A DNA stretch of 64,000 bases from Candidatus Omnitrophota bacterium (GTDB lineage Bacteria; Omnitrophota; Gorgyraeia; Gygaellales; Profunditerraquicolaceae), in assembly GCA_050012075.1 (NCBI GenBank), contig JBEKHW010000001.1:68766-132765 (forward strand), written 5' to 3'. Shown here piece after piece: positions 10,462 to 62,300 of the stretch. The notes below the pieces were generated by a model that was given only the letters and a program-made list of their open reading frames with translations, was not told the origin of the DNA and ran no database searches. Made by a program: the position numbers and the translations under genes. How positions within the stretch are numbered: position 1 is the first letter of the stretch; every line of letters starts with the position of its first letter.

Positions 10462-11907
10462 TTAAAAGGCGGGGAGGGCGGTATCTTTCATAAGGTATTT
10501 ATCAATGAAATGCGCGGCTTTTCTTCCCTCTGAGATAGCCCACACAATCAGGGATTGCCCGCGGTGCATGTCTCCGGCAGTAAATATTCCCGGGACAGAA
10601 GTCATGAAATCAACGCCTGTTGCGACATTTCCCCTGGAATCCAATTTAAGCTTAAGCTCGTCAATTATACCTTTTCTTTCAGGATGCAGGAACCCTAATG
10701 CCAGTACCACTAAATCCGCTTCAATTTCAAATCCTGAACCGGGTATTTCCTGCATTGCAGGGCAACCCTTTTGGTCTCTAGCGGAAAAATCTACACGCAC
10801 ACAGGAAAGCCCGGAAACAGAGCCGTTCTTACCGATAAACTTCTTGGTCAATACAGACCATTCTCTCGCTCCACCTTCCTCGTGGCTGGTTGTGGTCTTA
10901 AGAAGCAGCGGATACTTTGGCCAGGGATAATCCTGCGTGCGGCATTCAGGGGGCCTGCTAAGCAACTCTATCTGGACTACGCAGGAAGCGCCCTGCCTGT
11001 GCGCAGTACCCACACAGTCTGCACCCGTATCGCCGCCTCCGATGACGACTACTTTCTTACCCTTGGCATCTATAATTTTATCTGTCTGGACGCGCTCTCC
11101 TGCTACGCGCCTGTTGGACTGGATCAGATACTCCATCGCAAAATGTATCCCTTTAAATTCTCTCCCCTCTATATTTAAATCACGGGCTTGACGAGAACCG
11201 CAGGCAATACAAATAGCATCAAAATCTTCCTTTAGTTTGGCAACAGGTATATCTATCCCGGCGTTGGCTCCGGTACGGAATGTAATACCCTCTTTCTTTA
11301 AAATTGCTATGCGCCTGTCTAATATATTTTTATCCAGTTTAAAATCAGGTATACCATAGCGCATGATGCCGCCGATTTTATCGTCGCGCTCAAATACAAC
11401 TACAGAGTGGCCTGCCTGATTCAGCTGGTCTGCGCAGCTCCACCCTGCAGGACCTGAACCTATTACTGCAACATTTTTACCGGTGCGTTTCCTGGGACGA
11501 TTAATTTTTACAAGGCCATTTTTAAAGGCGTATTCTATAAGTGCGAGTTCATTTTCCTTGATAGTCACGGGGTCATCATTAATGCCCAGCACACAGGCAT
11601 ATTCACAGGGTGCCGGACAGATCCTGCCGGTTATCTCCGGAAGATTATTAGTTGCATCAAGTAATTCAAATGCTTTTTGCCAATGACCCCGGAAAAGATG
11701 GTCATTCCATTCGGGGATGTAATTTCCGATGGGGCAACCCCAGTGGCAGAAAGGAGTGCCGCAATCCATGCAGCGCGAGGCCTGATCCTTAGAATGCTCC
11801 TCTTTAGAGGGGGCATTTACTTCAGAATAATCCTTGATCCGCTCGCATACCGGCCTATATTCCTGCGGCTTTCTTTTGACTTTTAAGAAACCTTTTATGT
11901 CTCCCAT
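10462..11907 (-). CDS. gltD: Glutamate synthase small (NADPH) subunit
   Basis: 481 aa. N-terminal Cys clusters and two dinucleotide-binding motifs (VAVIGSGPAGWS and VVVIGGGDTGADC). Confidence 0.9.
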   Translation of the reverse strand: MGDIKGFLKVKRKPQEYRPVCERIKDYSEVNAPSKEEHSKDQASRCMDCGTPFCHWGCPIGNYIPEWNDHLFRGHWQKAFELLDATNNLPEITGRICPAPCEYACVLGINDDPVTIKENELALIEYAFKNGLVKINRPRKRTGKNVAVIGSGPAGWSCADQLNQAGHSVVVFERDDKIGGIMRYGIPDFKLDKNILDRRIAILKKEGITFRTGANAGIDIPVAKLKEDFDAICIACGSRQARDLNIEGREFKGIHFAMEYLIQSNRRVAGERVQTDKIIDAKGKKVVVIGGGDTGADCVGTAHRQGASCVVQIELLSRPPECRTQDYPWPKYPLLLKTTTSHEEGGAREWSVLTKKFIGKNGSVSGLSCVRVDFSARDQKGCPAMQEIPGSGFEIEADLVVLALGFLHPERKGIIDELKLKLDSRGNVATGVDFMTSVPGIFTAGDMHRGQSLIVWAISEGRKAAHFIDKYLMKDTALPAF

Positions 11908-11916
11908 ATTCCTCCG

Positions 11917-11991
11917 TAGGGACGGTTCTCAAGCCAAAGCTAAAAGTGTCCCTCAGGGGGACAGTTCTCCGAACAAATTGAGAACCGTCCC
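11917..11991. repeat. REP doublet (family agggacggttctcaa...aagtgtccc / ...gagaaccgtccct) between gltB and gltD
   Basis: Direct match to the REPs flanking the RAYT gene. Internal inverted arms are agggacggttctc and gagaaccgtccct. Confidence 0.7.
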
Positions 11992-11997
11992 TGATTT

Positions 11998-14900
11998 TTA
12001 GCCGTCAGATACCTCAATTAACTCGGCACCCTTAACAGGTTTTTTCTCCTGTAAAATCCTTTTGTATTCTAACGGCATGATTTTAATGAATTTCTTAAGC
12101 TTAGCCGTAAAATCATCAAGGATATCTTTGGCAATCCTGCTTTGCGTATATCGGTAATGGTTTTCCAGAAGCAGCCGTATCGTCTGGATATCTTCATCGT
12201 CGGCCTTCTCGAACGTAACCATCTCCATATTGCATTTCTTTTTGAAATTTCCGTTGATATCATAGACATAAGCAATGCCGCCGGACATACCCGCGGCGAA
12301 ATTCCTACCGGTCTCGCCCAATATTACCACTCTTCCGCCGGTCATATATTCACAGCCATGGTCGCCTACACCTTCTACCACCGCATATAAACCGGAATTC
12401 CGGATACAGAATCTTTCTCCGGCAACACCGCGTATATACGCCTCACCATTTATTGCTCCGTAGAAAGTGGTGTTCCCGATAATAATATTGCCTTCCAGAT
12501 TAGAATCCCTGGCAGGGTCGGGATAGATTATGATCTTGCCGCCGCTAGTCCCCTTACCTACATAATCATTAGCCATCCCGCTTAATTCAAAAGTTATGCC
12601 GCGGGCAAGCCACGCTCCAAAACTCTGGCCTGCCACACCCTTAAACTTAAAATGGATAGTATCTTCCCCTAATCCTTCTTCACCGAATTTACGGCAGAGC
12701 TCTCCGCTAAGCATCGCTCCGGTTGTACGGTTAGTATTATTGATTGCGACTTCCGCCTTTACCGGTGTAGCGTTATCAAGCGCGGGACGGGCGAGCGTCA
12801 TAAGTTTTAAATCCAATACCTTATCTATCCTGTGATTTTGCTTTATCGTACAATGGCTCATAATATCCTTGGATACCTCTGGTTTATAGAGCACCTTAGA
12901 AAAATCAATACCTTTTGCTTTCCAGCCAAGTATATCCTGGTTTAGCTCCAAGAGGTCGGTCCTGCCTACCATTTCATCCATTTTACGTATGCCAAGGCCG
13001 CTCATAATCTGGCGTAATTCCCGGGCTACAAAATTAAAATAATTAATAACATATTCTGGTTTACCGCTGAATCTTCTCTCCAGGATCTCATCCTGCGTAG
13101 CAATGCCCACAGAACAATTATTCAACTGGCAGTGCCGAAGCATCACGCATCCTAAAACAATTAAAACAGCAGTGCAAAAACCAAACTCCTCTGCACCCAG
13201 GATGCAGGCAATGGCTACATCGCGTCCCGTGCGCATCTGGCCGTCGGTTTGCAGGCGCACGCGGCTGCGCAAGTCATTTAAAACCAGCGTCTGATGAGTT
13301 TCGGATAGGCCTAACTCCCAAGGCAGGCCTGCATGTTTTATTGAACTTAGAGGAGAAGCTCCTGTGCCTCCATCACCGCCTGAAATAAGTATCATATCGG
13401 CATGGCCTTTAGCTACGCCGGCAGCGATTGTCCCTACGCCGATTTCCGAAACAAGTTTTACGCTGATACGCGCGGCAGGATTAGTATTTTTAAGGTCAAA
13501 TATCAATTGGGCAAGGTCTTCAATGGAATAAATATCGTGGTGTGGCGGAGGAGAAATGAGTGTCACCCCCGGAGTTGTGTAGCGTGTGCGGGCAATTATC
13601 GCGCTTACCTTATGCCCGGGAAGCTGCCCCCCTTCCCCTGGTTTTGCGCCCTGGGCTATTTTAATCTGTAATTCATCGGCGTTAATCAGATAATTAGTAG
13701 TTACGCCGAACCTGCCTGAGGCAACCTGTTTAATCGCGCTCCTTGCCGAATCCCCGTTTGGCAAGGGGCTAAAACGGCCGGGATCCTCACCGCCCTCTCC
13801 GGTATTGGATTTGGCTTTCAACCTATTCATGGCAATAGCGATGGTTTCATGTGTCGCTCTTGAGATAGAACCAAAACTCATAGCACCCGTGGCAAAACGC
13901 CTGACAATCTCCTCTGCGGATTCCACTTCCTCAAGGGGAATAGGATTTGCTTTCTTGAATTTTAACACTCCTCTTAATGTTGTAGGGTGGCTCGACTGGT
14001 CATTAATCAGGCGGATAAATTCCTCGTACCTCTTCTCATCATTATTACGCACGGCATCCTGTAGCGCTGCAATACTATCCGGATTCCAGAGGTGAAATTC
14101 TCCGTCTCTTTTCCATTGGTATAATCCGCCGGTAGTAAGGATCGGCTCATCTACTCTTTCAAATGCTTCCTTGTGCCTTATAATGGTCTCCCTGGCAATG
14201 GTTTCCAGGTTCACTCCGCCGATACGCGAAGGAGTCCCCGGAAAACATCTCTCAATTACTTCTTCTGCTATTCCTACTGCTTCAAATATCTGCGCGCCGC
14301 GATAACTCTGCAAAGTAGATATTCCCATCTTGGAGATTATCTTAAGTATCCCTTTTTCCACTGCTTTTATATAATTATGCAGGCCCTTCTCAAAATTAAA
14401 GCTGATCTCTCTATCTTCTGCCAAATATTTTACCGCCTCATAAGCAAGATAGGGATTAATGCAGTCCGCTCCATAACCAAAGAGAAGCGCAAAATGATGC
14501 ACCTCTCTGGGCTCTCCGGTCTCTAAAATCAGACTGATCTGCGTACGTAAAGCCTTACCTACCAGGTGATGGTGGACACTTGAGACAGCCAAGAGGCTCG
14601 GTAATGCTGCATGCGCCTTATCCACTCCCCGGTCACTTAAAATAATAAAGGTGTACCCCTCTTTGATTGCGGATTGCGCTTCTTTACAAATCCTGTCAAT
14701 TGCCTTCCTGAATCCATCTTTAATCGAGATATCAAACAGCGTAGAAATGGTTTTGGTCTTAAAGCCGTTTATTTTAATATCACGGATCTCTTCCAGCTTC
14801 TCATTGGTTAAAACCGGATGCTTAACCAGCAGTTTATGGCAATGTTCTGGTGTTTCATCCAGGATATTCTTCTCAGGGCCAAGGTAGGTTTCCAGGTTCA

Positions 14901-16572
14901 TCACCAGCTCTTCGCGGATATAGTCAATCGCCGGATTCGTAACCTGGGCGAACAACTGCTTAAAATAGGTAAATAACAACTGAGGCTTATCCGAAAGCAC
15001 GGCATGCGGCGTATCGTTACCCATCGAACCTACCGGCTCCTGGGCTGCCTCTACCATGGGCTTAATAATTACTTTCGGGTCCTCGCGGCTGTAACCGAAT
15101 GCCTTTAGCTGAGAAAGAATATCTGTTGACGTTATGCGTTCTGCGTTATGCGTTGTGCGCTTACTTACAGACAGGGCATCTAATTCAACTATATTACTTT
15201 TAAGCCATTTGCCGTAAGGCATACTTGTGGCCATCCTGCCCTTTATTTCTTCATCGGTAACAATGCGTTTTAATCCTGTATCAATAAAGAAAATTTTGCC
15301 GGGTTCAAGCCTTCCCGATAAAAGAATCTCTTCACCAGGCAAATCTAATACCCCCACTTCAGAGGCCATAACCACAAAACCTTTCTTAGTGACAATGTAA
15401 CGGGCAGGCCGAAGGCCATTCCTGTCAAGGAGTGCTCCGATACGCTCTCCGTCTGTAAAAGCAATGGCAGCAGGACCGTCCCAGGGTTCCATAAAACAGG
15501 CATGGTACCTGTAGAAACTGCGCACCTTGTCATCGAGAAAACTATTCTGCTCCCATGCCGGAGGTATAAGCATCATCATGGCATGCTCAAGAGGCCTACC
15601 GGAAAGGACAAGCAGCTCAAGGACATTATCAATGGTCGCGGAATCGCTTCCTCCCGGAACAATAACCGGATAAAGCTTCTTAAGAGCGGAGCCGAAGAGT
15701 TTACTTTTTAACAGGCCTTCGCGGGCGCGCATCCAATTGATATTCCCCCTCAACGTATTGATCTCTCCATTATGCGCAAGGAACCTGAATGGCTGCGAAA
15801 GGTCCCAGGTAGGAAAAGTATTGGTAGAGTAACGCGAATGCACAAGACAAAGAGAGCTTTTTATATTTTTGTCTTTTAGGTCAGGGAAAAACTTATCTAC
15901 CTGGTCAGGCATAAGCAGGCCTTTATATGAGAATGTACGGCTGGAAAGATTAGTGATATAAAAGAATGATTTCTGCTTTAATCCAGATGCGCGGATAGTG
16001 TTCTCTACCCTCTTCCTGATAATATAGAGCTTTCTCTCAAAATCAAGATTACCTTCACTTGTGACTTTGTGACTTTGTGACTTTGTGACTTTTTTAGCGA
16101 TAAATATCTGCTCTATGGCGGGCTGGGTGTCTCTGGCGGTCTTACCTATATCAGTATCATCCACAGGCACGGCTCGCCACCCCAATAATAGCTGGCCTTC
16201 TTTTTTTACAATACCTTTAAAGATATCCTTGCAGGATTGGCGCTCCTTGGTATCAGTAGGCAGGAATATAAGCCCTGCGCCATACTCCCCCAGAGAAGGC
16301 AAAATAATTTTTTCTTCTTTACATACCTTTTCGAAAAATTCATGGGGGATCTGCAATAACACCCCTGCCCCATCTCCTGTTTTAGGATCTGAACCCGTAG
16401 CGCCCCGGTGGGAAAGCCGCTTTAAAACCTCTAACCCCTGTAAGATAATCTGATTTGTCTTTTTACCGTCTATATTGCAGACAAAGCCAACCCCGCAGGA
16501 ATCATGTTCAAAACCGGGGTCATATAATCCTTGTTTTTCAGGAAAACCGTGTCTTTTCATCTTATCTTCCAT
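11998..16572 (-). CDS. gltB: Glutamate synthase large subunit
   Basis: 1524 aa. N-terminal amidotransferase Cys (CGVGF), FMN/Fe-S central domain, and C-terminal GXGXG beta-helix. Contains an in-frame AAAGTCAC octamer tandem repeat at 16061-16092. Confidence 0.95.
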   Translation of the reverse strand: MEDKMKRHGFPEKQGLYDPGFEHDSCGVGFVCNIDGKKTNQIILQGLEVLKRLSHRGATGSDPKTGDGAGVLLQIPHEFFEKVCKEEKIILPSLGEYGAGLIFLPTDTKERQSCKDIFKGIVKKEGQLLLGWRAVPVDDTDIGKTARDTQPAIEQIFIAKKVTKSQSHKVTSEGNLDFERKLYIIRKRVENTIRASGLKQKSFFYITNLSSRTFSYKGLLMPDQVDKFFPDLKDKNIKSSLCLVHSRYSTNTFPTWDLSQPFRFLAHNGEINTLRGNINWMRAREGLLKSKLFGSALKKLYPVIVPGGSDSATIDNVLELLVLSGRPLEHAMMMLIPPAWEQNSFLDDKVRSFYRYHACFMEPWDGPAAIAFTDGERIGALLDRNGLRPARYIVTKKGFVVMASEVGVLDLPGEEILLSGRLEPGKIFFIDTGLKRIVTDEEIKGRMATSMPYGKWLKSNIVELDALSVSKRTTHNAERITSTDILSQLKAFGYSREDPKVIIKPMVEAAQEPVGSMGNDTPHAVLSDKPQLLFTYFKQLFAQVTNPAIDYIREELVMNLETYLGPEKNILDETPEHCHKLLVKHPVLTNEKLEEIRDIKINGFKTKTISTLFDISIKDGFRKAIDRICKEAQSAIKEGYTFIILSDRGVDKAHAALPSLLAVSSVHHHLVGKALRTQISLILETGEPREVHHFALLFGYGADCINPYLAYEAVKYLAEDREISFNFEKGLHNYIKAVEKGILKIISKMGISTLQSYRGAQIFEAVGIAEEVIERCFPGTPSRIGGVNLETIARETIIRHKEAFERVDEPILTTGGLYQWKRDGEFHLWNPDSIAALQDAVRNNDEKRYEEFIRLINDQSSHPTTLRGVLKFKKANPIPLEEVESAEEIVRRFATGAMSFGSISRATHETIAIAMNRLKAKSNTGEGGEDPGRFSPLPNGDSARSAIKQVASGRFGVTTNYLINADELQIKIAQGAKPGEGGQLPGHKVSAIIARTRYTTPGVTLISPPPHHDIYSIEDLAQLIFDLKNTNPAARISVKLVSEIGVGTIAAGVAKGHADMILISGGDGGTGASPLSSIKHAGLPWELGLSETHQTLVLNDLRSRVRLQTDGQMRTGRDVAIACILGAEEFGFCTAVLIVLGCVMLRHCQLNNCSVGIATQDEILERRFSGKPEYVINYFNFVARELRQIMSGLGIRKMDEMVGRTDLLELNQDILGWKAKGIDFSKVLYKPEVSKDIMSHCTIKQNHRIDKVLDLKLMTLARPALDNATPVKAEVAINNTNRTTGAMLSGELCRKFGEEGLGEDTIHFKFKGVAGQSFGAWLARGITFELSGMANDYVGKGTSGGKIIIYPDPARDSNLEGNIIIGNTTFYGAINGEAYIRGVAGERFCIRNSGLYAVVEGVGDHGCEYMTGGRVVILGETGRNFAAGMSGGIAYVYDINGNFKKKCNMEMVTFEKADDEDIQTIRLLLENHYRYTQSRIAKDILDDFTAKLKKFIKIMPLEYKRILQEKKPVKGAELIEVSDG
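16061..16092. repeat. Tandem octamer (GTGACTTT)x4 inside the gltB coding sequence
   Basis: Encodes KVTKSQSHKVT in GltB. The same octamer is dispersed at three other loci. Confidence 0.8.
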
Positions 16573-34532: not shown

Positions 34533-36411
34533 TATTTGCCTTCCTAAGATATATCATCAATATGGAAACCGCGGCAGGAGTTACTCCGGAAATGCGCGAT
34601 GCCTGGCCAAGGTTTATCGGCTTAAATTTATCCAGCTTTTCTTTTATCTCGCGGGAAAGTCCGTTTATGGAAACGTAATTTAGGTCTCCTGGTATCCGTA
34701 TCTTCTCCAGGTTCCTGAACCGCTCTACATCCTTATATTGCCTCTGTATAAACCCGGAATATTTTACTTCAATTTCTACCTGTGGCAAAGCTAATTCTGG
34801 TATATTTATCCCTACCTGTCGCAACCCTTTTAATGTCTGGATATTAACCTGCGGCCGCTTAAGAAGCTCTTCCAGAGTTGCACTTTTATTTAGAAGAGAA
34901 GAATTTACCCCGGCAAGCATCGAATTCAATTCCTGGTCCGGCTTTATCCTTGTTTTCTTCAAGAATGCTATCCCTGTTTCTATGGCGCGGATTTTTTCTT
35001 CTGTCTTGCGGTATTCATCGTGGCTGACTAAACCTATATCCACGCCTATCCTGCGTAACCTCGTATCCGCGTTATCCTGGCGCAAAATCAGGCGGTATTC
35101 TACTCGCGAGGTAAACATCCGGTACGGCTCATTCGTGCCTTTAGTGGTCAGGTCATCTATAAGCACTCCGATATAGCTGTTAGAACGTTCCAGTATCAAC
35201 GACCCTTTACCTTTTATCCGTAATGCCGCATTAATTCCTGCAACCAAACCCTGGGCCGCTGCTTCTTCGTAACCGGTGGTTCCGTTAATCTGGCCGGCAA
35301 AATACAGGTTCCTGATTAATTTTGTTTCTAATGTAGGATACAACTGGGTCGGCTCAGCTACGGTATGCTCTATGCCGTATCCAAAAGTAATTGCCCTTGC
35401 CTTCTCCAGCCCCTCAATAGAATGTATCATCTCTAATTGCACTTCTTCGGGAAGGCTTGTCGATAAACCGTTGGGATAAACGCGTTCCGTATCAAGCCCC
35501 TGTGGCTCAAGGAATATCTGATGCCTTTCTCTGTCGGAGAATTTTACTACTTTATCTTCTATAGAAGGGCAGTACCTGACCCCCGTGGCTTTAATTATGC
35601 CGGTATATAGCGGAGACTTATCCAGATTATCAAGGATAATTTTATGGGTATTTTTATTGGTATAAGTAATGTGGCAGGGGACCTGCTTGCGCGTTATCTT
35701 CTCAGTTGAAAAAGAGAACGGCGTGGGGCAAGGATCTCCTTCCTGGATTTTAAGCCGGCTGTAATCAATGGAATCCTTATCTAGCCTGGCACAGGTACCG
35801 GTCTTAAAACGCATTAATCTAAACCTAAGCTCCTTTAGATTATTTGCCAGGCAGATACTTGCCGGTTCATTGATGCGCCCTGCGCTTTTATGTTTTAGGC
35901 CCACGTGTATCAGGCCGTCAAGGAATGTCCCCGGACACAGGACTATAGAATCGGTAAGAATTTCTTCCCCCTTTTCGGTAATTAGCCCCTTTATGGTATT
36001 GTTTTCGACAATCAGTTTCTGTACCTCGGCCTCTTTTATAAACAGACCTTCCTGGCCGGCGACCAGCTCTTTCATATAATTATTATACCTGTACATGTCT
36101 ATTTGAGCCCGCAGGGATTGCACTGCCGGCCCCTTGGAGGCATTAAGCATGCGGAATTGGATAGCGCAGGAATCAGCGGCGACTCCCATTACCCCGCCAA
36201 GGGCATCGACCTCTTTTACCAACTGGGCCTTGCCTACCCCGCCAATAGCGGGATTACAACTCATTAATCCTATATTTTCGCGCTTAAGCGTGATTAACAG
36301 GGTCCTGCAATGCATGCGGCTTGTGGCAATTGCCGCTTCAATACCGGCATGCCCTGCCCCGATGACCACCACATCATACTTTTCCATAAGCAACTTAGGG
36401 ACGGTTCTCAA
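34525..36411 (-). CDS. mnmG: tRNA uridine 5-carboxymethylaminomethyl modification enzyme
   Basis: 628 aa. FAD motif VVVIGAGHAGIEAA. The first 9 codons come from a REP element; the likely true start is MEKYDVVV near 36384. Confidence 0.9.
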   Translation of the reverse strand: MRTVPKLLMEKYDVVVIGAGHAGIEAAIATSRMHCRTLLITLKRENIGLMSCNPAIGGVGKAQLVKEVDALGGVMGVAADSCAIQFRMLNASKGPAVQSLRAQIDMYRYNNYMKELVAGQEGLFIKEAEVQKLIVENNTIKGLITEKGEEILTDSIVLCPGTFLDGLIHVGLKHKSAGRINEPASICLANNLKELRFRLMRFKTGTCARLDKDSIDYSRLKIQEGDPCPTPFSFSTEKITRKQVPCHITYTNKNTHKIILDNLDKSPLYTGIIKATGVRYCPSIEDKVVKFSDRERHQIFLEPQGLDTERVYPNGLSTSLPEEVQLEMIHSIEGLEKARAITFGYGIEHTVAEPTQLYPTLETKLIRNLYFAGQINGTTGYEEAAAQGLVAGINAALRIKGKGSLILERSNSYIGVLIDDLTTKGTNEPYRMFTSRVEYRLILRQDNADTRLRRIGVDIGLVSHDEYRKTEEKIRAIETGIAFLKKTRIKPDQELNSMLAGVNSSLLNKSATLEELLKRPQVNIQTLKGLRQVGINIPELALPQVEIEVKYSGFIQRQYKDVERFRNLEKIRIPGDLNYVSINGLSREIKEKLDKFKPINLGQASRISGVTPAAVSILMIYLRKANNE

Positions 36412-37006
36412 TCCAAAGCGAAAAGTGTCCCTTTTTAGTGTTAGAAAATTGTGTTTTAAACGTCTAGTATAGTTGGAGGTGACAGATATGCCAAGAACAG
36501 CAAGGCTTACTATTAAAAACGGATGTTACCATGTTATCACAAGAGGGAATCAAAAACAATCGGTTTTTGGAGATACGCGGGACTACGAAAAATATCTACA
36601 ATTTTTAGTTAGATACAGAAAACGTTATAAGTTCAGACTGTATTGTTTTTGCTTCATGCCAAACCACGTGCACCTTGTTATCGAAGTGAATGATCCCCAG
36701 AATTTGGAAAAGATTATGCGGGGAATAAACCTAAGTTACACACTCTATTTTAATTTTAAATACAAAAAGGTAGGGCATCTCTGGCAGGATAGATTTATGA
36801 GTAAAATTCTATATAAAGATAAATACCTGTTAGATTGTATAAACTACATTGAAACAAATCCTGTTAGGGCTAACTTAGTGAATAATATCACTGAATATCT
36901 ATGGAGTAGCTATAAGCTACGCTTAACTCAAAAACAAAACATTCTAGATATACCTGAAATCTGAATTTCTGGGGACACTTCTCCGATTGAATTAAGAACC
37001 GTCCCT
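36397..37006 (+). mobile_element. REPtron: RAYT gene flanked by inverted REP copies
   Basis: Left REP at 36397-36432 (agggacggttctcaatccaaagcgaaaagtgtccct). Right REP at 36971-37006 is its reverse complement (ggggacacttctccgattgaattaagaaccgtccct). Confidence 0.7.
36473..36964 (+). CDS. REP-associated tyrosine transposase (RAYT; IS200/IS605-like Y1 transposase)
   Basis: 163 aa. HuH motif NHVHLVI and a downstream Tyr region. It is flanked by inverted REP copies. It is the only convincing plus-strand gene. Confidence 0.75.
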   Translation: MEVTDMPRTARLTIKNGCYHVITRGNQKQSVFGDTRDYEKYLQFLVRYRKRYKFRLYCFCFMPNHVHLVIEVNDPQNLEKIMRGINLSYTLYFNFKYKKVGHLWQDRFMSKILYKDKYLLDCINYIETNPVRANLVNNITEYLWSSYKLRLTQKQNILDIPEI

Positions 37007-37009
37007 AGG

Positions 37010-37336
37010 TTATGAAAAGGAAAGGCCTGTATTATCAGGAGGGATATAGATTTTACTATCTTCGCCGAAGTCCAACCCGTGCTGCCAGAGGCCGTTATTA
37101 ATTTCTTTGGACCAAACCACAGTTGCTTGCTTAGAGAGGTTTTCCCGGGATATAAAAGGCGCGCTAATAACCAGGTTAATCTTCTGGTTAATGGCCAGGG
37201 CCATATGCGAAAGAATCCCTGCGCCCCGCGCGCTTAAGTCCTTCAAAATAGAGGATTGTTCCGTGCCTTCGGGTGCGGATAGGAAACAGGAACGGTTTAC
37301 CTTAAAACGGTTATATGACCTTCTATAAGCTGGCAT
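37010..37336 (-). CDS. PilZ domain protein
   Basis: 108 aa. RRSYNR (RxxxR) and DLSARGAG (DxSxxG) motifs. Confidence 0.55.
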   Translation of the reverse strand: MPAYRRSYNRFKVNRSCFLSAPEGTEQSSILKDLSARGAGILSHMALAINQKINLVISAPFISRENLSKQATVVWSKEINNGLWQHGLDFGEDSKIYIPPDNTGLSFS

Positions 37337-47625: not shown

Positions 47626-47701
47626 AGGGACGGTTCTCAATTCAATCGAAGAAGTGTCCCGGAACAGGGACGGTTCTCGCTTTGGTTTGAGAACCGTCCC
47701 T
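47626..47701. repeat. REP doublet at the 5' end of the glycosidase gene
   Basis: agggacggttctcaattcaatcgaagaagtgtcccggaacagggacggttctcgctttggtttgagaaccgtccct. Near-identical to 52211-52286. Confidence 0.7.
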
Positions 47702-47710
47702 GTTTTTGAA

Positions 47711-48925
47711 TTATTCGTATTTAATCTCATCCAGATAGAAGGTCGCGCCTTCCGGGTTGTTATCGATATTTGCCGACCAGCAGAATCCTCCGATTACGTA
47801 TGACATATCCTTGCCTTTTAAATCTATTGTATACTGCTGCCAATCTTTGGTAAGGATAACCGGCCCTATCACTGCGCTGTCAGAATCAGAGAACTCTCCC
47901 ATAATGCCGCCAACCTTGAATTCTTCTATGCGTTCGCCGCCCTTTGCGCCCTTAGCCCAAAAGGTTAGCTTTACGGCCTTAGAGAGATCGTATCCGCCAT
48001 CGATGGTGCCCCAGTTGTTCGCGGGATGCTGCCAGAAAATACCTGCCCATCGCGCGCCCTGCGCTGCTTTGCCGTTGTAGATAATCTTGATGCAGCTGTC
48101 GCCTAAATAGGCGTCTTCGCGGGAGGCATTATCATATTTTATATCTCCGTAATCACCCATCCAGCCTGAAGGAATAAAATGATTTTTAGGTGATGAGCTG
48201 TCGGAATAGATATAAAATGGCATTGCCTCGGATTTTTTTGCCTCAGGCTTCATGGCAGTATCTGCTTCATATTTGACGTCATCAATATAGAATGTGCAGC
48301 CTTGCGGAGCGAGGTCCGAGGTAATCACCCAGCCAAACCCTCCGTTTATATAGGAAAGGTCTTTGCCTGCCAGGTTAACCGTATATTGTTTCCAGGTATC
48401 TGTCAATTCAATCGGCCCCATTTCTACTGATGTTGAATCAGGATACACGCCTTTTATGCCGCCGACTATCACCTTTTGCAGGACCTCGCCGCCCTTTGCG
48501 CCCTTTGCCCAAAAGGTAAGTTTGGTCATGCCGGTAAGGTCAAAGCCGCCTTTTTTATTTCCCCAGTTGTTGGCGGGATTCTGCCAATAAACACCTGCCC
48601 AGCCCAATCCTTGCGATTTCTTGGCGCTGTAGGTAAATTGAATACAGGTGGTGCCGGAATGAGGGGTCTCCGTCGCCTGGTCGTTCATCTTGATATCGCC
48701 GTAATCACCCATCCAGCCTGAAGGAATAAAATGATTTTCGCGGTTAGCCTTATCGCTATAGACCGCAAATTCCTTTTTTTCCGGGGCTTTTGGTGCTACC
48801 GTTACCGTCGTAGCTGCCGTTGACACAGTCGTTGTCGTAGTTGTGGTAGTATTGGCAACTTCTTCGGCAAATACGCATGGCGTAATTACCGCAAGAACAG
48901 CCAAAATTACTAATAACTTTTTCAT
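47711..48925 (-). CDS. Secreted protein with a poly-Thr linker and two tandem roughly 170-aa repeat domains (carbohydrate-binding-like)
   Basis: A strong SD (gaggaggtg) precedes Met11 (MKKLLVILAVLA...). Internal duplication: HFIPSGWMGDYGDIK...LTFWAKGAKGGE appears twice. Confidence 0.5.
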   Translation of the reverse strand: MKKLLVILAVLAVITPCVFAEEVANTTTTTTTTVSTAATTVTVAPKAPEKKEFAVYSDKANRENHFIPSGWMGDYGDIKMNDQATETPHSGTTCIQFTYSAKKSQGLGWAGVYWQNPANNWGNKKGGFDLTGMTKLTFWAKGAKGGEVLQKVIVGGIKGVYPDSTSVEMGPIELTDTWKQYTVNLAGKDLSYINGGFGWVITSDLAPQGCTFYIDDVKYEADTAMKPEAKKSEAMPFYIYSDSSSPKNHFIPSGWMGDYGDIKYDNASREDAYLGDSCIKIIYNGKAAQGARWAGIFWQHPANNWGTIDGGYDLSKAVKLTFWAKGAKGGERIEEFKVGGIMGEFSDSDSAVIGPVILTKDWQQYTIDLKGKDMSYVIGGFCWSANIDNNPEGATFYLDEIKYE

Positions 48926-49009
48926 ACACACCTCCTCATTTGGTTCATGGTTCATGGCAAAATATTCTACTATGAACTATGAACTATCAACTATCAACTA
49001 TGAACTATA

Positions 49010-52210: not shown

Positions 52211-52286
52211 AGGGACGGTTCTCAATTCAATCGGAGAAGTGTCCCGGAACAGGGACGGTTCTCGCTTTGGTTTGAGAACCGTCCCT
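52211..52286. repeat. REP doublet between the two ABC permease genes
   Basis: Differs from 47626-47701 at a single base. Confidence 0.7.
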
Positions 52287-56315: not shown

Positions 56316-59300
56316 TTATGGCAGAGGAGGAGACTTCTGCAGTATCCGTAACCATTCAATCAGCTGAATTAAGGAACTTATTTTTTCACCCACAAAAACA
56401 TACCTGGAGTCATCTACATATATCGGCCCTACCTTATCGTATCTGACGGGGCCGTATTCCTCTTCTTCCGTAAAGGCGATTTCAGGGAGCCTGGCCGGCG
56501 TCGATGAGCTTTTCCCGGCAACATCGCAACCCGTATCTGGTTTGTTTCCGGATGCCGGCGAGCTGCCGATATTATCCTTACTTTTTTTTGTTTTACTCAC
56601 TACTGCCTTACCCATCTTTCTCCGGCAAGCGTTGATTAGGTCGGTCTGGGGATAGGTCAATCCTTCATCATTTTCTAAGGCACCAATTTGATCCAATATG
56701 GCTTTTGCCTTGTGCTTGCGGCCTTTACCCAGGGCATTAGTTAGCTGCCAATATAAATTGCTGAATTTTCTTTCTTGTTCCAGTGCCTCTTGTTCGCCAT
56801 CCGTGTCAAGAGAAGATAACTGGGATGTTTTCTCTGGGAGTGCCTGTGTTAAAAACAATGGCACAGGTTCTCTTTTAAATTTAATCGTCATTATGGCAAC
56901 ATAACGCAGCTGTGTGCCCTTTTCTGCTGCCGCTTCAATTAATTTCTTTTCTGCGTAATCCAGAGCCTTTATAATCTCATTATCCTCTCCGCAATTATTA
57001 GGTAATGTCTCAATATGCTCACGGAAGAACGCCAACAAGAAGGGCCATTCATTCAACTTCACGATATGCTCGATCTGTTCCGCGAGCGTCTTCCCCTTTA
57101 ACTCACGACGGCTCCGGAGCTTGTCTTTTAAATAATCGCTTTTGTCCAGCCACCCCATGGCCGCCTCGCATCTTTCTATAGTAAAATCTGGGGCCTTTAG
57201 CTCCTCTACTGCCAGCTGCGCTTCATCCTGCGCCGGAGAGCTGCCGGTTACTCCAGAATTATCCTTTCCGCCGCCTGCGCCGCCGCCTTGAGGTCCATTG
57301 CGTAAAGACACTTTATTACCGTGACTCTCATTCTCTTCTGGATCCATGCTACGCAAGACAAATTCATCATCTTTAAGAAGAGCAACTTTAAATTGACTCC
57401 TTAAACCTTTTATAAAATCAGACAATTCTACCTTGCCGTCCTCCGTTGCTAAATTCCAAGTATTGGGAAAAATTAAAACATGGGTAGATGGGCTAATATT
57501 ACCCAACAGATTAAATAGCCTTTTGAGTGCATGCGGCATGAGATGATGTATTACTGCATTAATCATTATAAAATCCGCTGAAAGGGCGCGATTTATAATA
57601 TTCTCATCAATAATATTCCCAAAAATTAGTTCAATTGAATCTTTTACAAAAGGTAAGTTTCGATTCACGAAATTAACCTTTGCCTGATAACGTTCAAATT
57701 CCCGCTGAGACGGTAAGTCAGGATTTTTTAACTCAAAACCAGAATCTAAATGGATTCTTGCTAGAGATAAGAAATCTTGTTCTATATCAACCCCCGTAAC
57801 TTTTAGCTGAAGGTTCTTCCCAAATTTTATACCCCATTCAGGATGTCTACTGACTTCATCAAACACAACAGCAGCTAGCGAGGCAGGCTCCTCTCCGGTA
57901 CCACAACCTAAACTCCACATATTTATCTTAACAGGTAATTCGTTATTATGTTTTTCCCTATCTATAATTATCGCTAAAGATTGCCTTATGTACTCGTATT
58001 CTTTATCACATCTTAAACAATCAGATTGGCTAACTACAATAAGATACTGATCTATAAGATACTGATGAGCCGAAGAATTCACATTATTCAAGTCAGCAAT
58101 AACCCGATGAATATCATAGTTATACTGCCTGAAACAATCATACAAATAAGAAGCCCCAGACTGCTGCGCTGACATCTCTTCTATCAATTGCCTGAGAAAA
58201 TTCAAAGAGGTTGGCGCTCTTCGAGAATCGCCGAACACCTTCTCATAAATACCTGTGCTGTAAAAAACATTCTCGATTGTTTTTATTTCTGCCTGACTGA
58301 TATTATAGCGGGACATAATATCGTGTAGTTCCGATAACATTCCCTCTTTCTCCGCCGGCGAGCTGCCGCGCTTAATAACTTCAGTAAACTTAATCGCTGT
58401 CTCTAGGGGGTTTGCTACCTGGGTAATCGCTGAATTTACCAGGAAACCATTAAATCCTATCATTAATGCTTGCCTGGCCTGTTCGGGGACACCTATACCG
58501 CACTCAGCAATTAACGAAATATCCGGCCGTATTTCCCTAACCCACCTTATGATATCTTTCATTTTCGTAATATCGCCCAAACCTTGGTTAGAACCCGGCT
58601 TTGTCCCTTCAATACGTAAAGCAATGACCTGAGGCGTTTTTAACAATTTTTTTAGCTTTGCTCTGCCAATATCTTTTCCTATTAAAGGGATAATCTTAAT
58701 GTTTTTGTTTAATCCAGCTAACTTACGGGTTGCTTCCAGAATATTGTCATTTTTAGTCATGAAATTATCATCTCTGATTTCAAGCTTAACATAAGGAGAT
58801 TTCATAATCATAATCCCTAACCCTGCCATTTTTACAGCCGCATCCACTGTTTGACACCTACTGGTATTGATGAGAATAATAAAATCTCTGGTTTTATTTT
58901 GTTTGGTTAATTTCTCATGAACTAATTTTATATAATCTAACTGCGCAAATTCCGACACTGAATTTAAATCACCTTCTTTACCCAACCTGCACCAGCCAGC
59001 ATTATCTTCAATCTCGGCTTTCTGCAGATAGCTCTCCATAGGTTTTATATGATATCCGGCCCTCATGTTTAATTCTTCGATACGCACAGGTGTAAAAATA
59101 AAGAATTGTGCGTTTGACTCTACGACAATGTCAGCTGCTATTTCCGTGGTAAGGATTTTAATGCAACTTCCTTTACCACGCGCATCATTAGATATATGTG
59201 TAATGGCTAGCGGAGCGATAAAAGGATATAATTGTCTATTATCAATTACTATACCGCCGTGCCTGCCCGCGCTGGCGGCAGGGCTGCTGCCGCACACACT

Positions 59301-62300
59301 AACGAAACCATCGGATTGTACTTGGTAAGCATCATCGGTGGCAGATTCAGCGGCAAGTTTTCGTGCCTCTTCGGGAATATAACAGTCTTCCAGCCATTTC
59401 AGGTTATTTTCAATCACCGCCCGTTCCTGAATCTCGCCTGCAAATGCCCTGGGAAAGATAATCTTTCCCCCCTCCTCTAATAATTTCTTCTTTGCCTGCA
59501 ACCAATAAGATACATTACAAGATATTGGTTGGTACTTCCATCCCTTCGGAAGACGGTCATTAACTTCGTGTATGGCTATTTGATAAGGAATCAAGATTTC
59601 AATCGCCCTTAATCTTTGGTTAATTTCCTGGATGTTCATCTCAATTGCTGCGTCTGCGTTTTTCCTTAACAACTCTTTCTTGGCCACCAACCATTCCCTT
59701 ACCGGTGAAAATAAATCTAATCCTTCATCGATCAGCCGGTCAATCACTTCATAGTAGGCGTCTCTATATGCCGCCGCTAATTTACCCGCTATCTCGGGTT
59801 TGATGAGCAACCCTAGATTGGCTTTTTGCGCCCTATGGTGCTCAATTTGGTCAATAAGTTTTGCGATATAATTATAGAATTCCTCCGCTATTTCAGGCAT
59901 CTTTGGCAACATTTGCTCTAAATTGCGTTTGGTCTGTCTTAAGGCCGTCAGGTTGGCTAAAGTACTGATTTCTTCTAATTCTAATGGGCGTAAGATTAGC
60001 GCTTCCAGCAAATCCTGGTTAAGCTTGAGGACGATGCTGAAAAATTCCTCTTTTAAAGCGGCTTTTCTCTGAACCCATTTTTTTCTCTCCCTGTTAAATA
60101 AGCTTCGGGAAAAATCCTGGATTTGTTTAATGTCCCATGGCGATAAACCGTCAGGCCATTCCTGACAAAATACTATTTCTCGCATAATCTCCAACATTTG
60201 CCTAATTTCTTCAAGGTCGGTAAGCTGGAGTATTTCGCCAGCTACTAAGCTGCGGATCTCGAGATGCGGAGAACGCAGCCTTGCTTTCAACCTCTCTAGT
60301 TTATGCTCCCAAAGTTCCGTAGTTGTTTCGTACACAGTTATTGTTTCCTCGGGCAGCTCTGAGTCGCCCTCACTGCCGGCAGGGCTGCTGCCGCGGATGT
60401 ATTTTTTCCTGTCTGCTAATTTTGCCAAAACTTCTTCTGCTTCAAGCAATCGCAAGACATTACGGTCATGCGCGCGGATATCGGTAAATAACTTCTGCCT
60501 ATCTATTTGTTTATCTGTAATTGCAGTATACCAGTTAGCCAGATGAGAAACCGAGTTCCACTGCGCCATGGTAATACCATTGAATACGCGGGCTCCCTTG
60601 TTATGCGCCTGATATAAGAACGGGGTGACCAATGGGTCTGTGATAATATCAATCACGGTTTGCCTTCGCGAAATTATTTTTGCGGCACCGGCAAAAGGAA
60701 CCGGGCCGTGCAAATCAGAATGCATGCCAACACCGGTGGCATTAACTATTACCAAGGAATTACGTAAAAGTTTTTTAGATTCAATGAAATTGAACCTACC
60801 AAAACCCATAGACTCCATAATCTGGAGCTTTTCAATGCCTGCACCCGCTAAGGCAAAATTAATTTCCATTCCTGCCCCGCCCAAGCCTAGAATCGTGAGA
60901 GTTCTTTTTTTCCAATTTGGCGGAAACTGGCTTTTGTACGCCTTAAGAAACGCAGCGCCATCTGTAGCGTCAAGCATTAACCGACCGTCTTTCTTAGTTA
61001 TATGGTTAATCGCCCCGGCTTCCTCAACGGCATCCGAAGCAATAACTAAATGCTTGTATTCTCTGGACATATAAATCTCCTTGGCTCTCATTTTCCAAGG
61101 CGCGGTCACTACGGCTCCGATTACACGCGGAGAGTCTTTCATCAAAGCCAATGCCTCGGCAAGTTGCGTTTCGTCTTGCACGGGATACGACACGCGAAGC
61201 GCATCAAGGCCTAAAATATTTCTAAAGGCGTTTTCATATTTCTTATCGGAATTTAGCGAGCCGGATTTTCCTATAAATAATGCAAATTTTGTGCTCTTGT
61301 TGACGGCAAATCCTTCCTGCTCTGCCAGAACCTCAAGCTCATCTTCAAAATTGGAGACGGTTCTATTTTTCGCCGGCGAGCTGCCAGCAGTAAGGCTTGC
61401 TGTTTGAGGCCCCTCTTTGGATTTATTTTGCGCAGCATATTCAAGGGCATTCAAGTACCACCACTGGGCTTCGCGGGAGACCTTCCATGCTCTTATGTCT
61501 ATCCTATTTTTAAAAATGGGGCCGTCTAATACTATCGTGTGATAATCATTATAATCTCCTATTAAGTCAATATTACTATCATGCAAGAACTTCATAAAGT
61601 CAGAGTCTATTTTATGGCCAAGCCATGACCTGCCGATAGCTTCCGATGGGGTGCTTACGACAATTGCCTCAAACCCGTCATGCAAGAAATTCCTAAGAGC
61701 GTCTTCCGGTCCCTGTTCATATAAAAGTTGGGGCGCATCCAATCCAAGCTCTGCGCATGTCTGCTTAAGCCATAATGCATTTATGCAGGGCCCGAATTCA
61801 TGCCCTCCGAAGATACAACCCCTGATCTTCCGGTCATTGCTCCTAAGTTCTGCTATGGCATCCATGAATTCAACTGAATCGTAATATTCTCCCCGTACCT
61901 CTTTTTTATAAAGAGAAACCCCCAATGCATTTGCCTGCAATTGCAATAATCCTGTTTCTGTCCCATGAAAACATACTCTTGTCTGCTTTTCTGAAACAAA
62001 ACTAACGAGGGAAGAAACGTTATATCCTTTCTGCAGCGCCCGATACAAAGCATGGCAGCAATCTTTCCCGCCACTCCAGAATAACAAATAATGCCCATTC
62101 GCCGGCGAGCTGCCGACTTCCTTTGGCCTCTCTGCTGGCCGACCATTCGCCGGCGCGGATGTGCCTGCCTGGGAAAGTCCGCCGGATTCAAGGCCCGGCA
62201 TTCTTTGATTATCAAGCAGATTATTTTCACTGCCGCGGTGGAAAACATTATCCGGCTCCAATCCCTTGATCCTACACAGATGCTCATGGAAAAAGTTATT

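Follow-up and report, generated by a model that had tools for sequence, protein, structure and literature searches.

A probable REP/RAYT system in a Candidatus Omnitrophota bacterium and its tail-less transposase

Introduction

The locus described here raises the question of whether a small transposase gene bracketed by inverted palindromic repeats is an ordinary insertion sequence (IS) or the centre of a REPtron, that is, a system of repetitive extragenic palindromes (REPs) and their REP-associated tyrosine transposase (RAYT). It lies in a stretch of 64,000 nt (64 kb; hereafter the window) of Candidatus Omnitrophota bacterium (assembly GCA_050012075.1, contig JBEKHW010000001.1, positions 68,766 to 132,765 of the forward strand). 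Systems of RAYTs with REPs, or with the REP doublets forming hairpins known as REPINs, are the classic case of within-genome replicators that are inherited vertically. To our knowledge, nearly all characterised examples come from Gammaproteobacteria and have Group 2 or Group 3 enzymes.

A sequence-only reading of the window had proposed a complete REPtron, and the call proved right in each of its three parts: a RAYT protein, inverted flanking REPs and dispersed doublets of the same family. The window locus is very probably a REP/RAYT system of Candidatus Omnitrophota bacterium. The system is of the ordinary kind; what is new is the phylum and, judging from sequence comparison, the branch of the enzyme, which appears to be a tail-less member of the supposedly REP-less terminal inverted repeat-associated tyrosine transposases (TIRYTs; Group 1).

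The transposase and its flanking REPs

The gene (Table 1) encodes a protein that matches Pfam Y1_Tnp (6.5e-17) and scores 84.7 bits with the NCBIfam model NF047646 REP_Tyr_transpos for REP-associated tyrosine transposases (cutoff 80); its score with the IS200 model NF033573, 22.5 bits, lies under the cutoff of 55. A sequence search of the PDB returned a single match, the E. coli TnpA-REP protein (4ER8). In the alignment to it, which the earlier reading had named as a check of the HuH and tyrosine motifs, every catalytic element finds its counterpart: H60-V-H62 faces HMH, W99-Q100-x-R-F faces WQPRF, and Y120-IETNP125 faces YIYINP. The AlphaFold (AF2) model of the window protein (predicted local distance difference test score, pLDDT, 82.8) also has 4ER8 as its best fold match, with a template modelling (TM) score of 0.74, whereas the TnpA proteins of IS608, ISDra2 and IS200 reach only about 0.5–0.56. 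None of 29 orthologues deviates at residues H60, H62, W99, Q100 or Y120.

Class 2 (TnpA-REP) proteins share a Y---NP motif, while IS200 has Y---Q (Quentin et al. 2018, PMC6006769), so Y120-IETNP places the window protein on the RAYT side. By the definitions of the same paper, the whole RAYT signature (HuH, WQ and Y-x-x-x-N-P) is present. The features of an IS200/IS605 TnpA are missing: the Y-x-x-x-Q motif, an adequate model score, multiple copies in the window, same-strand end hairpins and a tnpB neighbour. No tnpB adjoins the gene according to the domain calls of its neighbours, and no second RAYT copy was found within the 64-kb window. The proposal that the transposase is a RAYT rather than an ordinary IS200/IS605 TnpA is thus upheld by the family models, the tyrosine motif, the sequence and fold match to 4ER8, and the absence of a neighbouring tnpB.

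Inverted repeats of about 36 nt had been described on both sides of the gene; both were found, and the coordinates of that reading were right to within one base throughout. The two REPs are identical at 29 of 36 positions and lie in inverted orientation with the conserved AGGGACGGTTCT arms outward. The left one precedes the mnmG start codon (36387, minus strand) by 9 nt, and 6 nt separate the RAYT stop codon from the right one. The unit is an imperfect palindrome of 36 nt with a 12-bp stem (GGGACGGTTCTC / GAGAAGTGTCCC), which contains conserved G.T and G.G mismatches, and a loop of 10 nt. Across 147 units of the family, the arm GGGACGGTTCT and its partner A(G/A)AA(G/C)(T/C)GTCCC are near-fixed; the loops are more variable and centre on two types, A (..CAAAGC) and B (..CAATCG). 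The base 5' of the stem is A in 142 of the 147 units and the base before it is T or C, which gives a tag 'YA' in place of GTAG (or CGTC); the 8-nt flanks, viewed without a tally, have no preference for G before this tag. As short (20–40 nt) extragenic imperfect palindromes, with all eight window units intergenic, the repeats conform to the definition of REPs.

As single-stranded DNA, a unit on its own has only a weak fold (−5 to −7 kcal/mol). A terminator scan of the RAYT region (36200–37200) revealed no T-tract terminator; the REPs are thus not intrinsic terminators of the classic kind. In the region 36388–36494 (minus strand), no Shine-Dalgarno sequence was seen between the left REP and the mnmG start. 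A sigma-70-like site (TTGGCA, 17 nt, TATACT; 36494–36466, minus strand) overlaps the RAYT start codon; an mnmG leader starting there would therefore contain the REP hairpin.

REP doublets in the window

Three gene-less doublets of the same family are dispersed over the window (Table 1). The sequence-only reading had placed two of them correctly, at 47626–47701 and 52211–52286, but the first occupies 11918–11992 and not 11917–11991. Each doublet is composed of a plus-strand REP, a gap of 3–4 nt between full 36-nt units, and a minus-strand REP, and the outer 13-bp arms, agggacggttctc / gagaaccgtccct, agree with the inverted repeat described earlier. The three doublets fold as long hairpins (−23 to −29 kcal/mol, z −6 to −8).

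All three occupy short gaps between co-directional genes. Doublet 1 fills the 90-nt gap between gltB (11998–16572), encoding the glutamate synthase large subunit, and a gltD-like gene for a small-subunit-like partner (10462–11907). Doublet 2 lies between the stop codon of the open reading frame (ORF) 47711–48955 and the TTG start of a lipoprotein-like gene, both genes being without a Pfam match; an ORF that seemingly crossed this doublet had its start resolved to the TTG just past the REP. Doublet 3 separates two ABC permease genes. The doublets at 47626 and 52211, which are 4.6 kb apart, are identical at 75 of 76 positions, including the spacer.

The 13-mer arm, with up to two mismatches, occurs 13 times in the window against 0.81 expected, and none of 100 shuffles reached 13; chance palindromes were rejected on these grounds. 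A CRISPR array was also rejected, as the units form inverted pairs and not spaced direct repeats. An nhmmer profile built from the 147 family members detected exactly eight units in the 64-kb window (E 1e-11 to 1e-12) and no diverged copies beyond them. The spread of the repeats had been named beforehand as one of the points on which the REPtron proposal could fail; they are over-represented in the window and dispersed in many Omnitrophota genomes.

Conservation and inheritance of the locus

More than 100 orthologue clusters were found, 61–74% identical to the window protein, nearly all of 156–162 aa and each on one or a few contigs. In eight lineages (the window and the retrieved loci L016, L050, L051, L054, L055, L069 and L084), the gene occupies the same slot, in the order queG-like, mnmG, RAYT, apgM and the ribonucleotide reductase (RNR) gene, where RAYT and mnmG diverge and apgM and the RNR gene follow downstream of RAYT; the adjacency of mnmG is based on Pfam GIDA calls. 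Identity across the lineages is 65–73% for RAYT, 62–70% for the queG-like protein, 82–84% for ApgM and 77–83% for RNR. Occupation of one slot in eight lineages at such identity is what a domesticated gene passed on by vertical descent would show, and is unlike the behaviour of an insertion sequence. The orientation of RAYT is kept in the orthologous loci.

The anatomy of the locus is conserved as well. An outward-facing REP stands on each side of RAYT in all eight lineages and in L049, with the left REP 5–10 nt from the mnmG start codon in all orthologous loci. The flanking loops are of type A on the left and type B on the right in the window, L016 and L050. An alignment of nine lineages revealed a conserved block, GTTAGAAA ... 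CGTCTATTAT ... GGAGGTGA, between the left REP and the RAYT start codon, which is likely to comprise a promoter and a ribosome-binding site. Comparison of these loci indicates that RAYT is a long-inherited single gene at a fixed slot, seen in single copy within the 64 kb.

The repeat family in other Omnitrophota genomes

A degenerate REP pattern of 35 nt was used to scan species-representative genomes and metagenome contigs; because it demands YAA behind the arm, the counts are lower bounds, and they cover relatives rather than the window's own genome. At least 48 stretches were found in about 15 species-representative metagenome-assembled genomes (MAGs), all of them Omnitrophota, some under the label 'uncultured Planctomycetia', together with at least 67 metagenome stretches carrying the pattern. 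Crude ORF calls cover 87% of the sequence yet miss 80% of 194 units, and several of the units within ORFs are due to over-extended start codons, like the ORF at doublet 2. In the fragmentary MAG CAYVIU01, there are at least 25 exact-pattern matches and at least 17 near-identical '1.5-unit' copies (arm-loop-arm-loop-arm); its RAYT is more divergent (54% identity) and located elsewhere.

All 44 distinct doublets in the retrieved loci are arranged tail-to-tail with the conserved arms outward. An A unit is paired with a B unit in 28 of them, there is no A/A or B/B pair, and in each of the remaining 16 one unit or both have a loop of neither type. With this arrangement and with A and B in the order of the gene flanks, a doublet is topologically a REPtron minus its gene, and the doublets look like RAYT-less REPtrons. 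One site was seen in both a filled and an empty state: L055 carries a doublet at the junction of the queG-like gene and mnmG, whereas in the window and L051 these genes overlap and no REP is present. Along with the almost identical doublet pair in the window and the near-identical copies in CAYVIU01, this site speaks for mobility of the repeats.

The spacers of doublets fall into two classes, of 5–6 nt and 15–18 nt (seven loci), and in the longer class a conserved spacer, CATTATCCTTATATAG, and its variants recur across different MAGs and metagenomes. The dominant form in CAYVIU01, the '1.5 unit' (eleven loci and others), consists of a 5' arm, loop, 3' arm, loop and 3' arm, that is, a tandem of a 23-nt half-unit, sometimes with an extra partial arm. 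Either 3' arm is a possible pairing partner of the lone 5' arm. A mirror form (arm-loop-arm-loop-3' arm) was observed in three loci.

Position of the enzyme among RAYTs

The motifs of subclass 2.1 are NHVH, W[EQ] and YIELNP, and those of the E. coli subclass 2.2 are DHLH, WE and YIHYNP (PMC6006769). The window protein, with NHVH, WQ and YIETNP, fits subclass 2.1 and neither subclass 2.2 nor the Pseudomonas subclass 2.5. It was compared with 36 reference proteins rebuilt from Additional file 5 of Di Nocera et al. 2013 (PMC3733652). To the long TIRYTs it is 33–39% identical over its full length (85–123 bits), while it scores 36 bits with E. coli b228 (19.6% identity) and 45–58 bits with the RAYTs of Pseudomonas and Stenotrophomonas. 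In a neighbour-joining tree computed without reference sequences for subclasses 2.4 and 2.7, the Omnitrophota proteins fall within the clade of long TIRYTs, split from the classical RAYTs and an acidobacterial set in 100 of 100 bootstraps. Clustering with b228 or with Pseudomonas/Stenotrophomonas RAYTs, which would mark Group 2 or Group 3, was not observed; both core-domain similarity and motifs are those of TIRYTs and subclass 2.1. The equivalence with Bertels Group 1 is drawn from the mapping in PMC6006769 and the Di Nocera sequences, not from Bertels' own sequences.

The window protein departs from this lineage in its length. An exhaustive search of 1.8 billion representatives gave 34,322 relatives, the nearest of which (40–55% identity) are mostly of 190–338 aa and match through the first ~150 residues only. 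In four of five tested relatives of ~315–340 aa, the tail matches Bac_DnaA_C, twice above the Pfam cutoff; tails of this type were described for subgroup 2.1.2 (Quentin et al., PMC6006769). The window protein has no C-terminal extension resembling a helix-turn-helix (HTH), its 158 aa comparing with a lineage median of 238 and a REP abutting the stop codon, and the 120 orthologues among those listed are of ~156–162 aa, a few longer gene calls aside. Since its nearest relatives carry tails and it ends at the core, the enzyme appears from these comparisons to be a tail-less member of TIRYTs (subclass 2.1, Group 1), and not a RAYT of E. coli or Pseudomonas type.

The repeats may point the same way. 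The terminal inverted repeats (TIRs) on either side of TIRYT genes share the motif GGGGWSAS, and in some families the TIRs are self-complementary and found as dimers (Di Nocera et al. 2013, PMC3733652). Read on the complement, the inner arm of the REP is GGGGACAC, which fits this motif; the right REP matches at 8 of 8 positions and the left at 7 of 8. The flanks are inverted repeats, but in the form of stem-loops. A 194-aa TIRYT-like paralogue, 33% identical to the window RAYT, is present in other Omnitrophota (L027 3303–4037, which equals L103 11892–12626, and L077 ~1480–2190). Its flanks are plain inverted repeats, either a 32-nt repeat, GGGACGGAGCCATCCTCCGGGGGGACACCCTC, containing GGGGGACAC, or AGGGGACACACCTG; both carry GGGGWSAS and resemble REP arms.

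On balance, we are somewhat inclined to the view that a tail-less offshoot of Group 1 (subclass 2.1) independently turned into a REPIN-RAYT system in this uncultured, non-proteobacterial phylum, has long been kept at one slot across many Omnitrophota species, and acquired a hairpin consisting of two inverted copies of the TIR-type GGGGWSAS motif.

A possible mode of action

The proposed mechanism follows the established biochemistry of E. coli TnpA-REP and IS608 TnpA. The 158-aa protein is predicted to be a HuH/Y1 single-strand DNA endonuclease-ligase, and its cognate DNA would be the 36-nt imperfect hairpin with the mismatched stem, the 10-nt loop and the 5' 'YA' tag. The enzyme would recognise the folded, mismatched hairpin on transiently single-stranded DNA and cleave beside it through Y120 with a HuH-bound metal; religation would then excise the doublets or copy them into new extragenic sites. 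The units copied in this way would be gene-less pairs of an A-type and a B-type hairpin placed tail-to-tail, similar to REPINs or to the bacterial interspersed mosaic elements (BIMEs). By analogy with these enzymes, the window protein is likely to be catalytically active and to be the agent that cleaves and spreads the hairpins. The host may benefit, and effects of the hairpins within operons, such as mRNA stabilisation or attenuation, are plausible.

Gene neighbourhood and window context

The window has a G+C content of 45%. On its ORF map, all long ORFs are on the minus strand with the sole exception of RAYT; the few plus-strand ORFs of more than 120 aa each overlap a larger minus-strand ORF, which is consistent with the earlier description of RAYT as the only plus-strand gene. 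The GC skew of the plus strand is negative over the whole window (−0.07 to −0.15), and together with the minus-strand bias this makes RAYT the only gene on the presumed lagging strand. An Rfam scan of the 64 kb gave no family at the gathering score, tRNAs included.

The neighbours of RAYT are mnmG and PilZ/apgM. A PilZ-domain gene of 108 aa (37010–37336, minus strand) lies between the right REP and apgM in the window lineage only, and the stop codon of this gene lies 3 nt from the end of the right REP. The slot of L055 lacks apgM itself. In L050 (4485–9134), the RNR gene beside apgM is of at least 1647 aa and contains two intein/LAGLIDADG insertions, while the window orthologue has 764 aa and no intein insertions. 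Close to the end of the window (56316–63488, minus strand) there is an ORF of 2390 aa.

Table 1. Coordinates of the RAYT gene, its REPs and the gene-less doublets in the 64-kb window
Feature	Position	Strand or order	Description
RAYT gene	36488..36964	+	ATG 36488, stop ends 36964, 158 aa; HuH/Y1; H60-V-H62, W99-Q100, Y120-IETNP
Left flanking REP	36397..36432	+	AGGGACGGTTCTCAATCCAAAGCGAAAAGTGTCCCT; 36 nt; loop type A AATCCAAAGC; outer arm AGGGACGGTTCTC; profile E 1.8e-12
Right flanking REP	36971..37006	-	AGGGACGGTTCTTAATTCAATCGGAGAAGTGTCCCC (minus-strand reading); loop type B AATTCAATCG; inverted relative to left; profile E 1.9e-12
RAYT upstream region	36440..36483	+	GTTAGAAA 36440-36447; CGTCTAGTAT with -10-like TAGTAT 36461-36470; Shine-Dalgarno GGAGGTGA 36476-36483
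Gene-less doublet 1	11918..11992	A(+) then B-like(-)	3 nt between 36-nt units; folding free energy (dG) -23.2, z -6.1
Gene-less doublet 2	47626..47701	B(+) then A(-)	z -8.3
Gene-less doublet 3	52211..52286	REP(+) then REP(-)	z -8.0

Discussion

The REP/RAYT system proposed here resembles several known systems and is identical to none. The nearest in anatomy is the REPtron of E. coli (TnpA-REP, or RayT/YafM, 4ER8; Bertels Group 2, Quentin subclass 2.2), in which a small, tail-less HuH/Y1 protein of ~160 aa with a matching fold is also encoded by a single gene between inverted, imperfectly palindromic REPs, and extragenic inverted pairs of two REP types are dispersed. E. coli BIMEs pair Y and Z REPs, as the window pairs A and B. 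The differences concern the low sequence identity, the motifs (NHVH and YIETNP in the window, DHLH and YIHYNP in E. coli), the residues that read GTAG, which are not conserved in the window protein, the 'YA' tag in place of GTAG, and the phylum, Omnitrophota as opposed to Proteobacteria.

TIRtrons (subclass 2.1, Group 1) encode the closest sequence relatives over the whole protein, and the common signatures are an N-terminal MPRxxR..YH.xxRGN, NHVH, WQ, YIE.NP and WSS; the inner REP arm, moreover, fits their repeat motif. However, TIRYTs have a C-terminal HTH/Bac_DnaA_C tail of ~70–170 aa, which the window protein lacks, and the flanks in the window are true stem-loops accompanied by a conserved family of dispersed doublets. 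The Pseudomonas REPIN-RAYT systems (Group 3, subclass 2.5) share with the window a vertically inherited RAYT with REP flanks, present in single copy (in the window, within its 64 kb), the inverted REP doublet as the replicating unit, a long hairpin, and near-identical copies within a genome. Their enzymes are distant in sequence, and the window differs in that the halves of its doublets are two distinct REP types and in its copy number, which stands at eight units per 64 kb. With the TnpA of IS200/IS605 elements (IS608, ISDra2), the window protein has in common the HuH/Y1 fold and, as a family trait, a hairpin-recognising single-strand chemistry; it differs in the Y motif, the score below the family cutoff, the inverted end hairpins, the lack of multiple copies and, within the 64 kb, of tnpB.

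Several points weigh against the interpretation of the locus as a REP/RAYT system with an enzyme of subclass 2.1. The cutoff of NF047646 is cleared by less than 5 bits. The copy number of eight REP units, the single-copy state of RAYT and the absence of tnpB hold for 64 kb only, and a second RAYT or a tnpB could lie elsewhere in the genome. The 12-kb stretches around several orthologues (L051, L054) hold only the two flanking REPs, so REPs may be scarce in some lineages. Where E. coli reads the GTAG guide with E100, H101 and R104, the window protein has S105, K106 and Y109, so recognition of the cleavage site is not simply transferable from E. coli; the 'YA' tag is consistent with these changes. 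Finally, no REP-like sequences were reported near subclass 2.1 genes (Quentin et al., PMC6006769), and only Groups 2 and 3 are stated to have REPINs (Bertels and Rainey, bioRxiv 10.1101/2021.07.10.451892). The placement of the enzyme matters precisely because the literature describes subclass 2.1, or Group 1, as not associated with REPs or REPINs. Our literature search found no paper linking Omnitrophota with REPs or RAYTs.

The alternative that survives best, improbable as we consider it, is that RAYT is a domesticated gene of Group 1/TIRYT type whose flanks are its own terminal repeats or regulatory sites, and that the dispersed hairpins serve the host as regulatory elements, acting between the genes of operons as mRNA stabilisers, attenuators or terminators; they would owe their spread to recombination or slippage and their persistence to selection, and neither to the enzyme. 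The report that this lineage lacks REPs (PMC6006769) speaks for it, as do the plain-TIR paralogue in the same phylum, the strongly folding doublets that lie inside operons directly 5' of start codons, and the half-unit tandem duplications of the '1.5 unit', which suggest slippage. However, selection for hairpins alone would not hold a 12-nt arm invariant across species while the loops drift, nor would it enforce A/B heterodimers in the order of the gene flanks or preserve a REP on either flank of the gene in each lineage, and terminator-like T-tracts are absent from 36200–37200.

Decay offers another account, in which RAYT no longer acts and the REPs are remnants of earlier activity; the 7 of 36 positions at which the flanking REPs differ and the few REP copies around some orthologues would agree with it. 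We regard it as very unlikely, for the ORF is intact, the catalytic residues are invariant in the 29 orthologues and the promoter and ribosome-binding region is conserved, and the almost identical doublet pair in the window as well as the at least 17 near-identical copies in one MAG also stand against it.

An ordinary autonomous IS200/IS605 insertion sequence, made up of TnpA with end hairpins and accompanied by derivatives similar to miniature inverted-repeat transposable elements (MITE-like palindrome-associated transposable elements, PATEs) as the dispersed hairpins, would share the HuH/Y1 fold, the Y1_Tnp match and the hairpins at both gene ends, but it is largely refuted and extremely unlikely in view of the IS200 model score, the Y---NP motif, end hairpins that are inverted where those of IS608 have the same-strand orientation, the one syntenic slot in eight lineages at 65–73% identity, and the lack of a second copy in the window and of a tnpB neighbour.

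As a REP/RAYT system, the locus reveals no new mechanism, and the refinements it brings are of moderate specialist interest. It extends the REP/RAYT phenomenon to Omnitrophota and to a different enzyme lineage, its heterodimeric doublet mirrors the two flanks of the gene itself, and its REP hairpins are linked to the GGGGWSAS repeats of TIRtrons. For the annotation of Omnitrophota MAGs, it explains the recurrent 'transposase' beside mnmG and draws attention to repeats that may break assemblies. If the origin from a tail-less Group 1 enzyme is true, this would be a third RAYT lineage with REPINs, contradicting the rule of 'only Groups 2 and 3', and it would provide a concrete intermediate between TIRtrons and REPtrons.

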